DNA of 52,704 bases. It comes from Nanobdellota archaeon. GTDB lineage: Archaea; Aenigmatarchaeota; Aenigmatarchaeia; QMZP01. Below, one piece after another: positions 26,934-29,155 of the stretch. The notes below the pieces were generated by a model. That model was not told the DNA's origin. It saw only the letters and a program-made list of their open reading frames with translations, and ran no database searches. Made by a program: the position numbers and the translations under genes. The DNA lies in NCBI GenBank assembly GCA_043814765.1, contig JBDRJQ010000035.1, forward strand, positions 1 through 52,704, written 5' to 3'. The stretch's first letter is position 1. Every line of letters begins with the position of its first letter.

Positions 26934-27853
26934 CGCCACAACTCGCATGTTTTGCATATTTCTTGAGCAGACGGCTCGCCGCATTTTTTGCATACTTTTA
27001 GTTTTATTTTGGTTCCCTTTACTTGGTTTCTTATGATAGGTAAAAACTTGTCAAAAGTTTCAAGAATGGAGTATCTAACACCTGGATATTTTTCTTCCAA
27101 TTCATTTACAAATTTCAATGCATCGCTCCTCAAACCACTATTATAAGGACATTTCTTTTCCACTGCATCCAATTTTTTAATCTTTGCGTATAGTTCAGCT
27201 TCTTCTTCTGGTAGCAATCTTAACGGTTTTATCTTAGGTACGAACAGAGAACCCGTATCTTCTGAGATCGAAAAGTTGGTTATCATACCAAGCCTGCTCG
27301 CACGGGGCATATCTCCTCTTATGTAATTCATTAGAACAGATTGTGCTTCGTTATCAAGATTGTTTCCTACACACAACTTGTCTGCTTTCATCTCACGTGC
27401 GATTTTATTCAGCATATACCTGCGTCCAACACCGCAGTAAGCGCACGGTTCTTTGAGTTTTGTTTCTTCCTTAACTTTCTGATCCATTGTTTTTCCAAAC
27501 TCTTTCTTAAAAGAATAAATTTTATGTTCAATACCCATCTTCTTACACAGCTTCTTTGCTAACTTTATATGCTTGGTTCCAACGTCCTTGATTCCTTCAT
27601 TAATAGAAATAGCTATTAACTCTGTTCCAGGCACTTTGCCAAAAGTTTTGCTCATTATATGCAAAAGGCTTACAGAGTTCTTGCCTCCAGACACACCTAT
27701 TACTATCTTGTCTCCTTTTTGCACCATTCTATGGTCCCTTATAGTGCGTTTTACCTTTCTTTCTACGGATTCACAAAAGTGCTGTTCGCATAGGTATCTG
27801 CCTTCATATGACCTGTGAAATACTGCTTCCTTACAGCATCTGCATTTCTTCAT
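26930..27853 (-). CDS. TtuA/Ncs6 (TIGR00269)-like protein with a degenerate PP-loop
   Basis: Terminal zinc fingers, CAYC and CPY retained; SGGKNS and GNNLDN replace SGGKDS and GHNLDD. Confidence 0.85.
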   Translation of the reverse strand: MKKCRCCKEAVFHRSYEGRYLCEQHFCESVERKVKRTIRDHRMVQKGDKIVIGVSGGKNSVSLLHIMSKTFGKVPGTELIAISINEGIKDVGTKHIKLAKKLCKKMGIEHKIYSFKKEFGKTMDQKVKEETKLKEPCAYCGVGRRYMLNKIAREMKADKLCVGNNLDNEAQSVLMNYIRGDMPRASRLGMITNFSISEDTGSLFVPKIKPLRLLPEEEAELYAKIKKLDAVEKKCPYNSGLRSDALKFVNELEEKYPGVRYSILETFDKFLPIIRNQVKGTKIKLKVCKKCGEPSAQEICKTCELWR

Positions 27854-27939
27854 AACTTCCCTCGTCTTTTTTAAATTAGAAAAGGAGTTTAATAATATAA
27901 TATGCTGGGGTGGCGGAACGGTAACGCACTGGTCTCGAA
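27843..27939 (+). repeat. 97-bp perfect direct repeat, copy 1
   Basis: Identical to 29059-29155; covers the ttuA start, the intergenic promoter and the tRNA-Ser 5' exon. Confidence 0.92.
27904..27939 (+). pseudogene. Truncated tRNA-Ser(CGA) 5' half (positions 1-37) followed by a decayed intron-repeat start
   Basis: GCTGGGG...CTGGT-CT-CGA-A then TAAACCTTTCGAAAATAGG; no 3' exon follows. Confidence 0.8.
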
Positions 27940-28016
27940 TAAACCTTTCGAAAATAGGAAAACATACTATCGATTAAAAGAATTAACAATTTATATAACA
28001 GAAAACAATTATAACC

Positions 28017-29000
28017 ATGAAAAAAATCTGCTGTTTTCTTTATTTCCTATTTTTTGCTCTTTTTTTATCAACATCTGTCTTTGCTCAGACCGATGAAGAT
28101 ATATACAATATGCTGGATTGTTGTTCATTGACAACAACATGCTTTACTGAAGGCGGAGTAGCCACATATAATAAAGTGTGCTTAGCCAACGCTTATTTGG
28201 TGGAAAAGCTAGGCATAAATTGCAGGCAAATACAAGAGGCTACAGAGGGAGACAAAGCATTGGAGATAGAGTTGTTCGGTACCCGATGCGCAGTATTTGA
28301 AGCAGAATCTATATCCTGTTATGACGGTACATGCCTACCGCTAGGTTGCTGCCACATATCAAAATACTATAAAAATGATGTCTCAGGCAATAGCTTCAGC
28401 ATGTCAGAAGAAGAATGCTATGATCTAGGAACAAACAGTGAATGGGAAGTTGGGTCATGCGATTGCGAGACAACAAGAGTATGCATAGGAACTAAAATCA
28501 TGAAAACCAACAGTGACTGCACGTTGTCTTCTAGAGACTGCACTGATAATGCCAAAGAAGATGATGTAGTACACGACAATCCACAATGCACGCAATGGAC
28601 TACGCTGCTTGGATTGCAAGATGCAAAATGCGAGTGCAGTGAGGCATCATGGTGCATAAGCCCCACCGAAATAAGATGGCTATCAACAGATTGCAGTGTA
28701 CACATAACTGATTGCTATAACATGAATTATGGTCCGTATATATATTTATGCTTCCCATTAAGCCATGATAAGGCAAGCTGCAAAAGTGTTGTTCTTCCGC
28801 ATGATGAGCAACCAGGTACTATACCAAGCGGCATAGAGGATTCTGCAGAGCCAGCAACAGGATGGGGAGCCTTTCCTCTGACTGATTCAGCTATAGCGCA
28901 AATAAGCATAATAACAATAACCATTTTAGCAATATTGGTTCTTTATGTGACAAGATCTTCAAAAATTTTTGCCGGCAAAGGCAAAAAAAGAAAGAAATAG
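28017..29000 (+). CDS. Cys-rich secreted, membrane-anchored protein
   Basis: Signal peptide (VFA-QT), many Cys, GWGAFPL, TM helix, KGKKRKK tail. Confidence 0.8.
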   Translation: MKKICCFLYFLFFALFLSTSVFAQTDEDIYNMLDCCSLTTTCFTEGGVATYNKVCLANAYLVEKLGINCRQIQEATEGDKALEIELFGTRCAVFEAESISCYDGTCLPLGCCHISKYYKNDVSGNSFSMSEEECYDLGTNSEWEVGSCDCETTRVCIGTKIMKTNSDCTLSSRDCTDNAKEDDVVHDNPQCTQWTTLLGLQDAKCECSEASWCISPTEIRWLSTDCSVHITDCYNMNYGPYIYLCFPLSHDKASCKSVVLPHDEQPGTIPSGIEDSAEPATGWGAFPLTDSAIAQISIITITILAILVLYVTRSSKIFAGKGKKRKK

Positions 29001-29069
29001 TCGTCTCCACAATTTACATGTCTTGCAGACTTCCTGTGCCGAAGGCTCGCCACATTTACATTTCTTCAT
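28959..29069 (-). pseudogene. Internally collapsed ttuA-like remnant (MKKCKCGEPSAQEVCKTCKLWR...)
   Basis: The first codons of ttuA are fused to a homolog of its last 18 codons (16/18 aa identical, mostly synonymous DNA changes). Confidence 0.75.
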
Positions 29070-29155
29070 AACTTCCCTCGTCTTTTTTAAATTAGAAAAG
29101 GAGTTTAATAATATAATATGCTGGGGTGGCGGAACGGTAACGCACTGGTCTCGAA
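29059..29155 (+). repeat. 97-bp perfect direct repeat, copy 2
   Basis: Identical to 27843-27939. Confidence 0.92.

Follow-up and report, generated by a model that had tools for sequence, protein, structure and literature searches.

Archaeal tRNA fragments, tRNA introns and split tRNA genes are usually attributed to integrating viruses or plasmids, and Randau and Söll reportedly proposed that introns shield tRNA genes from such integration. Here we analyze a locus in a DPANN-type archaeon in which the start of the gene ttuA, a shared promoter and the 5′ half of a tRNA-Ser(CGA) gene occur twice, as a perfect 97-bp direct repeat around a surface-protein gene (gene S) and a relic of a second ttuA. 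The locus lies on contig C35 (52,704 nt), the whole of which is our window, in a short-read metagenome-assembled genome (MAG) of 859 kb and 39 contigs with 88% completeness (G000). The comparison genome was that of a relative from the same genus, g1 (G001). We read the locus, with a probability of about 0.6, as an insertion-duplication made by ectopic recombination at a dispersed hairpin repeat, a small tandem structure resembling a merodiploid; its second unit would derive from a related lineage or from an old paralogue, and the second ttuA would have collapsed afterwards.

The nearest precedent is the disrupted tRNA-Thr(GGU) gene of Caldiarchaeum subterraneum (Sugahara et al. 2012, PMC3293823), where a 5′ fragment sits upstream of the full gene at a distance of 1-2 kb; the case was interpreted as a way in which tRNA introns, fragments and split genes can arise. 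As in Caldiarchaeum, the fragment described here and its upstream DNA do not differ from those of the full gene, and the full copy has a junction intron that is missing in a related allele. However, the Caldiarchaeum insert is 1.87 kb long, is present in six copies and carries a predicted recombinase, and its fragment ends at position 27 (PMC3293823), whereas our insert is single-copy, has no recombinase and is a diverged copy of chromosomal neighbors (S and the ttuA relic). In addition, our repeat runs through the promoter into the neighboring open reading frame (ORF) and ends at the canonical position 37/38, on a dispersed hairpin repeat that we call famA.

A second comparison is offered by tandem-duplication merodiploids, which arise by unequal crossing-over between dispersed repeats when partly repeated donor DNA is taken up (Johnston et al. 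2013, PMC3784515). In the model, the incoming fragment bridges two chromatids: on one it finds an alternative copy of the repeat, on the other its cognate flank (PMC3784515). Our locus resembles them in its head-to-tail units and in the short dispersed repeat, which is seen at both ends and, in a badly decayed form, probably also at the junction; a donor fragment pairing in this way would give such a topology, with a donor-derived patch by the junction. The merodiploids, however, were found in a bacterium, with repeats derived from insertion sequences and duplications of 100-900 kb (PMC3784515), while here the unit measures 1.2-1.4 kb, the repeat is a hairpin of ∼35 nt, and the host is an archaeon, in which DNA uptake is putative and the process inferred.

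Two further groups of archaeal systems touch on the locus. Elements of the SSV and pNOB8 types duplicate part of a tRNA gene as attL and attR (She et al. 2001, Reiter et al. 1989, as cited in PMC3218864). Partial and full tRNA copies that stand as direct repeats around inserted DNA are common to these att duplications and our locus; in contrast to what is described for them, our locus has no integrase, its cargo is chromosomal and syntenic, and 62 bp of the repeat lie outside the tRNA. In Thermoproteales, transposed or shared tRNA introns are near-identical in different tRNAs and at different positions (Fujishima et al. 2010, as cited in PMC3218864 and PMC4090602). In a similar way, famA starts six introns here and is also found in spacers, but those studies deal with intron gain, whereas here an intron-borne repeat appears as the breakpoint of a gene-sized rearrangement. 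Integron- and shufflon-like systems work with a dedicated recombinase and several cassettes; we found neither here, and the S family is absent from the relatives. The structure is of a known kind, either an insert flanked by a tRNA fragment or a tandem merodiploid of small size. What is unusual is that the breakpoint lies on an intron-borne hairpin repeat, that the promoter is duplicated, and that the cargo is a diverged copy of the neighbors.

A perfect 97-bp repeat ends at the tRNA-Ser splice site

The features of the locus are as follows.

26563..26605, plus strand: decayed famA, beginning inside the aIF5A stop codon (AAATAAACCTTTT..TTTAATC..), left end of unit 1; 32/36 to the consensus
26640..26933, plus strand: small GW gene of unit 1, an ORF of 97 amino acids (aa) with a signal peptide, GWAAGPFGGGY, a transmembrane (TM) helix and a basic tail; no ectodomain
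26930..27853, minus strand: resident ttuA, 307 aa, with Pfam PP-loop, TtuA LIM_N and zinc-ribbon matches; tRNA 2-thiolation family
27843-27939, no strand: repeat copy 1, made of the ttuA start 27843-27853 (minus), the divergent promoter 27854-27903 and the orphan tRNA-Ser(CGA) 5′ half 27904-27939 (plus)
27937, after copy 1: famA at the junction; 27/38, first 12 nt exact
27940..28016, plus strand: junction and upstream region of S, a 77-bp leader with a famA-like start, TAAACCTTTCGAAAATAGG
28017..29000, plus strand: gene S, an ORF of 327 aa in the slot of the small GW gene
29001..29069, minus strand: ttuA relic, reading MKKCKCGEPSAQEVCKTCKLWRR, with the frame open on to 28959 (36 codons)
29059-29155, no strand: repeat copy 2, which takes in the beginning of the relic ORF, the promoter region and tRNA-Ser(CGA) exon 1
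29120..29320, plus strand: functional tRNA-Ser(CGA), exons 29120-29155, 29214-29244 and 29307-29320
29153, after copy 2: famA at the start of intron 1; 39/40 to the consensus

The two repeat copies are identical over 97 nt and lie 1216 bp apart from start to start. When mismatches were allowed, the match extended to 112-113 nt at 96% (27837-27948 and 29053-29164). Pieces of the block occur in the genome at these two places only. The other exact repeats of at least 80 nt were the 141-bp overlaps between contig ends and one pair of 82 nt, ∼190 bp apart on contig C29; given this near-absence of other long exact repeats, the 97-bp repeat is far beyond chance. The block is composed of 11 nt from the start of the minus-strand ttuA (ATGAAGAAATG), a 50-bp intergenic spacer and 36 nt of tRNA-Ser(CGA). 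The spacer contains a TATA element of the TTTAAA type, which can be used in both directions. The tRNA part (27904-27939 and 29120-29155) covers standard positions 1-37, and the identity between the copies ends 0-1 nt from the 5′ splice site. Beyond it the sequence is unique, TAAACCTTTCG at the left junction (copy 1) and AAAACCCTTTT at the right junction (copy 2). The first 12 nt after copy 1 agree with the famA consensus, and the remainder is decayed (27/38 overall). An earlier reading of the sequence alone (the original prediction) had described a perfect 97-bp repeat with copies 1216 bp apart, an end of the repeat at the tRNA-Ser intron boundary, a break of copy 1 into a decayed famA start, and a duplication of the 5′ half with its upstream DNA that is unlike the usual tRNA att site. 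Each of these points was confirmed, the last by the extension of the repeat beyond the tRNA gene.

Introns, one or two each, occur in many tRNA genes of this MAG. In the functional tRNA-Ser(CGA), intron 1 (29156-29213, 58 nt) is at position 37/38 and intron 2 (29245-29306, 62 nt) in the T-loop at 59/60, and both start with famA. The gene was missed by ARAGORN in bacterial mode and by Rfam and was recovered through explicit splicing: with both introns removed, ARAGORN returned a clean type-II tRNA-Ser(CGA) cloverleaf. The minimum free energy fold of the pre-tRNA was uninformative on the bulge-helix-bulge motif. Copy 1 should yield a truncated, unspliceable 5′ half as a leader.

The second unit contains a relic of a diverged ttuA

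The 1,119 bp between the repeat copies consist of the leader, gene S and the ttuA relic. What the relic retains of a second ttuA is the C-terminal zinc knuckle, joined to a ttuA start. Its stop codon has been altered to CGA, and 13 out-of-context codons follow MKKCKCGEPSAQEVCKTCKLWRR. An intact ttuA′ of the relic type would be expected to end in GEPSAQEVCKTCKLWR. The relic adjoins the S stop codon with zero spacing, as ttuA adjoins the small GW gene in G001. In an independent search of the genome, the relic matched TtuA residues 277-307 (E 3.2e-7, 67% aa identity), and none of 2000 shuffles reached the score of the DNA alignment between the relic and the 3′ end of the resident ttuA. The motif GEPSAQE is found in TtuA of genus g1 only, among the 24 loci examined.

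The order of elements is therefore the same in both units, which stand head to tail: a gene in the GW-anchor slot, a convergent ttuA (full or relic), and the promoter with the tRNA 5′ half. Unit 1 (∼26563-27939) holds the 97-aa anchor-only GW protein and the intact ttuA, which is convergent with the 97-aa gene and divergent from tRNA-Ser, and unit 2 (27940-29155) holds the long S protein and the ttuA stump. The prediction that a unit of surface gene, convergent ttuA and tRNA-Ser appears twice is proven by the relic, with the qualification that the second ttuA survives as 36 codons only. The accompanying statement that the two units carry different surface genes stands insofar as both genes are present; their homology is one of position and anchor motif, as no sequence beyond the anchor could be aligned.

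We compared the relic with the ttuA genes of both genomes. In a 54-nt core, the relic is identical to G000 ttuA at 38/54 sites and to G001 ttuA at 43/54 sites, while G000 and G001 agree with each other at 46/54; the relic is thus no closer to the ttuA of its own genome than to that of G001. By codon position (first/second/third) the differences number 4/1/11 against G000 and 4/1/6 against G001. This bias indicates that the second ttuA was still functional while it diverged and that its truncation came late. A search with a degenerate DNA pattern found the relic peptide encoded in no species genome. The insert is a mosaic, with 97/97 identical sites in the repeat next to 38/54 in the adjoining relic core. 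At a per-site identity of 70-85%, the chance of 97 identical sites in a row would be 1e-15 to 1e-7, so that the 97 bp must have a separate, recent history. The mosaic excludes a simple recent intragenomic duplication as well as a uniformly old one; units that are neither identical nor uniformly diverged require either donor DNA or age combined with gene conversion.

The resident TtuA has SGGKNS and GNNLDN (27350-27367 and 27674-27691) where G001 has SGGKDS and GHNLDD. Past redundancy with the second ttuA might explain these relaxed active-site residues.

Gene S and the small GW-anchor protein

The S protein has an N-terminal signal-like helix and, on the C-terminal side, a TM helix with a KKRKK tail; ∼30 cysteines and a GWGAFPL motif are also present. 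The sequence TTTATATA, at 27990-27997 and 20 nt upstream of the S start codon, is presumably its TATA box. To judge from this arrangement, S would gain a spare tRNA promoter from repeat copy 1 in addition to its own TATA box. S had no match in Pfam or NCBIfam, and searches with the 97-aa protein in these two databases returned nothing useful.

Relatives of S are rare. Among 5.8 billion proteins and 1.8 billion representatives only two distant ones were found (32% and 29% identity), one from an unrelated assembly and one a paralogue in the same genome. In 90 genomes of the order there was none except this paralogue of ∼30% identity. Neither species genomes nor viral contigs gave a match to S, and the repeat was likewise without a match in viral contigs. 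The paralogue, on contig C29, has the canonical anchor GWAAGPFG and an ordinary gene context. The gene of the other relative (P0002, 32% identity; L035 2488-3429) adjoins that of a PKD/BNR-repeat protein on a 4-kb contig; with neither ttuA nor a tRNA gene nearby, this is not the slot between aIF5A and ttuA. The alignment of the S family has 23 invariant cysteine columns, and a structure prediction for S made from a three-sequence alignment had a mean pLDDT (predicted local distance difference test) of 46.

The two slot genes share a layout of signal peptide, GW motif, TM helix and basic tail. The ortholog of the 97-aa protein in G001 has 73 aa (L002 1276-1497), and an S-family profile matched the small GW proteins of both genomes through the anchor, with an E of 1.7e-9 for the C-terminus of the 97-aa protein. 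Beyond the anchor, no sequence homology between S and the small GW proteins could be demonstrated. The conserved anchor-only protein (97 aa in G000 and 73 aa in G001, with GWA(A/T)GPFGG) resembles an S-family protein minus its ectodomain.

famA-type sequences at the three unit boundaries

famA is a dispersed hairpin repeat of the form TAAACCTTTT-loop-AAAAGGTTTAATCCAAAAG with ∼24 loci genome-wide, which lie at the starts of tRNA introns (six) and in spacers, often on stop codons. At our locus it occurs at the left end of unit 1 and at the right end, where it opens intron 1, and probably also at the junction of the units, in a copy too decayed for proof. Since the break lies at the edge of famA, the statements that the repeat ends at the splice site and that it ends at the famA edge are equivalent. 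The junction famA resembles the ATAAACCTTT variant, which is seen in the aIF5A flank and in T-loop introns, and not the AAAACCCTTT of intron 1; a junction of the ATAAACCTTT type fits a hybrid origin. The corresponding spacer of G001 is just 21 nt long and lacks the famA that G000 has at 26563. The suggestion that the intron repeat was the recombination point agrees with these positions, as the break coincides with a famA start and a decayed famA also follows the aIF5A stop.

At the other 23 famA loci, the flanking repeats were at most 11 nt long, which is near chance (the random 95th percentile is 10 nt). The exception was a 16-nt flanking match at 29247, which is part of the neighboring famA copy itself. 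The possibility that famA insertions generally make long target duplications was therefore rejected for G000. Further copies of famA in the window lie at 39144-39164 and 52541-52559, and the TAA stop codon of aIF5A lies inside AAATAAACC. In another genus (G024, L007), the tRNA-Ser(CGA) gene likewise has a famA-type hairpin (the TTTGATTC variant) within its T-loop intron.

Related loci

Orthologs of ttuA were found in 32 of the 41 relatives. The divergent arrangement of ttuA and tRNA-Ser(CGA) is shared by G000, G001, G024, G008, G017 and one metagenome contig, and in none of the five loci other than that of G000 is the tRNA half duplicated. In G001 the order is aIF5A, the 73-aa GW protein, ttuA, tRNA-Ser(CGA), a free-standing LAGLIDADG gene and tRNA-Val(GAC). 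The G001 locus has no insert, and its tRNA-Ser(CGA) has no intron at 37/38, which suggests that the insert, and possibly also intron 1, is specific to the G000 lineage. The TtuA proteins of the two genomes are 68% identical, while the promoter and the tRNA 5′ half have strongly diverged between them.

Exact look-ups of TtuA and S in public assemblies gave no match. A metagenome scan with TtuA revealed no near-identical strain; the best relative there was 66% identical and belonged to the G001 lineage. The comparison of strains for different genes in this slot, which had been proposed along with the prediction, thus came down to one same-genus genome that simply lacks the insert. In other genera, small ORFs without mutual relationship occupy the aIF5A-ttuA slot (99 aa in G008, 122 aa in G021 and 65 aa in G018), or the slot is empty (G011, G023 and G013; convergent spacers compared in L003-L020).

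A proposed origin of the locus and its alternatives

How could the two units have come to stand side by side? The ancestral order would have been the one that G001 still has: aIF5A, a small GW gene, a convergent ttuA, a shared divergent promoter and tRNA-Ser(CGA). In the present locus, the segment from just past the aIF5A stop codon to tRNA position 37 is there twice, with famA at the left, at the junction (decayed) and at the right. A topology of famA-unit-famA-unit-famA is what two famA copies would be predicted to produce by unequal recombination or template switching. We therefore propose an ectopic (unequal) event of one of these kinds between the famA of the intron and the famA downstream of aIF5A. 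Unit 2 is not newly copied from unit 1: its slot gene, S, is a long allele with a cysteine-rich ectodomain, and its ttuA 3′ end has diverged by ∼30%, mostly at synonymous positions. Given this donor-like divergence of S and the relic, we favor homeologous DNA as the source of unit 2, contributed by a related lineage within the genus, with an old paralogue as the alternative. A donor fragment may have bridged two genome copies, as in transformation-triggered merodiploidy, leaving recipient sequence to the right of the crossover. Later, a deletion inside the second, chimeric ttuA would have reduced it to the 36-codon relic, so that 97 bp of recipient-type sequence remained duplicated; the deletion junction would lie in the AAATG(T/C) Lys-Cys codons that are common to the N- and C-terminal zinc knuckles. 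As the 97 bp comprise the whole bidirectional control region and both gene starts, ttuA would retain its promoter (copy 1) and tRNA-Ser its promoter and 5′ exon (copy 2), and both would survive. Loss of the insert would be passive only, through ordinary homologous recombination between the 97-bp repeats.

The prediction of an allelic cassette that integrated here came close to this proposal, as unit 2 is a diverged unit (∼70% nucleotide identity in ttuA) with the signature of a coding sequence that evolved elsewhere.

Several points weigh against a recombination-made insertion-duplication. The donor lineage was not found: S is without a close relative, and the relic peptide is in no species genome. 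A paralogous source locus could sit in the part of the genome that is missing at 88% completeness. The similarity between the regions upstream of S and of the 97-aa gene is marginal, with 77 of 2000 shuffles scoring as well. The junction famA is badly decayed (27/38), and its role as a crossover substrate is argued from ∼12 nt and its position. Finally, the support comes from the assembled sequence of a single locus in one MAG and carries moderate weight.

The alternative that survives best is an old tandem duplication in situ, in the ancestor of the genus, followed by reciprocal decay (the ectodomain was lost from unit 1 and ttuA from unit 2) and by loss of the second unit in G001, with gene conversion over the 97 bp keeping the promoter and the tRNA half identical. 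The head-to-tail structure with famA at three boundaries would follow from it, and the relic is roughly an outgroup to the ttuA genes of G000 and G001 (38/54 and 43/54 versus 46/54). The short GW gene that both genomes share would place the ectodomain loss before their split. Nevertheless, the conversion tract would have to span the whole 97-bp block to both of its edges with almost no flanking homology, and the divergence between the promoters and tRNA halves of G000 and G001 means that the identity must be recent. Moreover, the synonymous-biased divergence would require two functional ttuA copies to be kept for a long time, and a perfect 97-bp repeat should favor loss of the insert. We consider this origin unlikely, but it is the one to be taken most seriously beside recombination with donor or paralogous DNA.

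Quite improbable is a remnant of a site-specific integrative element (of the SSV/pNOB8 or Caldiarchaeum type) that entered at the tRNA-Ser 5′ half and lost its integrase. Direct repeats that overlap a tRNA gene do bracket the insert, and a known case has a 5′ tRNA fragment placed 1.8 kb upstream of a full copy that carries an intron at the junction (PMC3293823). However, among the ORFs and Pfam matches in the 22-34 kb part of the window there was no recombinase or integrase, in agreement with the original prediction of none, and the sole tyrosine recombinase of the MAG (PF00589) is on contig C31. The insert consists of a single gene and a relic of the chromosomal neighbor ttuA, which argues for a chromosomal, syntenic origin; it is not repeated in the genome and has no match in viral contigs. 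The repeat also reaches past the tRNA gene: it takes in the promoter and enters the ttuA ORF. The locus does not look like the footprint of a site-specific mobile element.

We regard it as very unlikely that the locus is an assembly artefact, in which two strain alleles or a small circle were stitched in through the shared 97 bp. Such errors are a concern in a MAG assembled from short reads into 39 contigs. The exact 141-bp overlaps between contig ends (window 1-141 and 52564-52704 are shared with contigs C38 and C24) indicate that the final k of a de Bruijn assembly was 141. As this exceeds 97, the repeat was not collapsed in the graph, and both junctions required spanning reads or k-mers. 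To be joined falsely, two sequences would have to share 20 nt or more, whereas the aIF5A flank, the alternative partner on the left, shares only 11 nt with the junction. The internal fusion in the relic is likewise not something that assemblers generate. The end overlaps with C38 and C24 also provide scaffold links for the window contig.

Even less probable is a programmed variable slot, in which surface genes are exchanged by dedicated cassette exchange at the tRNA intron repeat. The original prediction had named an excisable slot of this sort, and this part of it was not supported. The different small ORFs between aIF5A and ttuA in different genera and the presence of both a short and a long GW-anchored allele would suit it, and the repeats would permit excision. 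On the other side, there is no recombinase, no alternative cassette or silent-cassette array, and no S-type gene at other tRNA halves; S has no relatives in the 90 genomes but the one paralogue, which sits in an ordinary context on C29; the other 23 famA loci are without long flanking duplications; and G001 lacks the insert altogether. That copy 1 is a functional 5′ half gene of a split tRNA or a regulatory tRNA-half RNA, trans-spliced or autonomous, is barely credible despite its identical promoter and its exact 1-37 half that stops at the splice position, because split tRNA genes of the Nanoarchaeum or Caldivirga type have a separate 3′ half, complementary leader and trailer and no intact gene, whereas here an intact tRNA-Ser(CGA) gene lies 1.2 kb downstream, neither an orphan 3′ half nor a second copy of the half was found elsewhere in the genome, the famA hairpin has been lost from the trailer past copy 1, and the 3′ segment of the intron, which would be the pairing partner of the anticodon region, is missing there.

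If recombination at famA did build the locus, it would be an intermediate that combines an orphan 5′ half with its promoter, a full copy that has newly gained an intron, and a surface allele captured from a foreign source, all obtained without an integrase. A breakpoint marked by an intron-borne dispersed repeat instead of an integrase site would be a different route to such a structure, and an orphan 5′ tRNA half with its own promoter is the kind of element required as a precursor of a split tRNA gene. The duplication of the shared promoter would explain how both flanking essential functions survived, and the event would be a candidate mechanism for the acquisition of a surface-protein allele in a reduced genome. 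Tentatively, hairpin repeats in DPANN introns may be substrates of ectopic recombination that break tRNA genes at intron positions, with this locus as an intermediate; this wider claim is possible but doubtful. If general, the process would provide a route by which split tRNA genes and tRNA fragments arise, and by which related DPANN lineages capture genes from one another without an integrase.

Neighboring genes

Directly past the cluster of four tRNA genes is an ORF of 281 aa (29986-30831, minus strand) that belongs to no Pfam or NCBIfam family. Free-standing genes resembling LAGLIDADG homing endonucleases adjoin tRNA genes in G001 (L002 2586-3530) and in G017 (C73:3021-3413), in both cases beside the same tRNA-Ser/tRNA-Val pair. 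In G000, LAGLIDADG-like genes adjoin tRNA genes at C1:10384-10881, C37:1920-2561 and C37:34562-35167. Such genes could be a source of double-strand breaks at tRNA loci.

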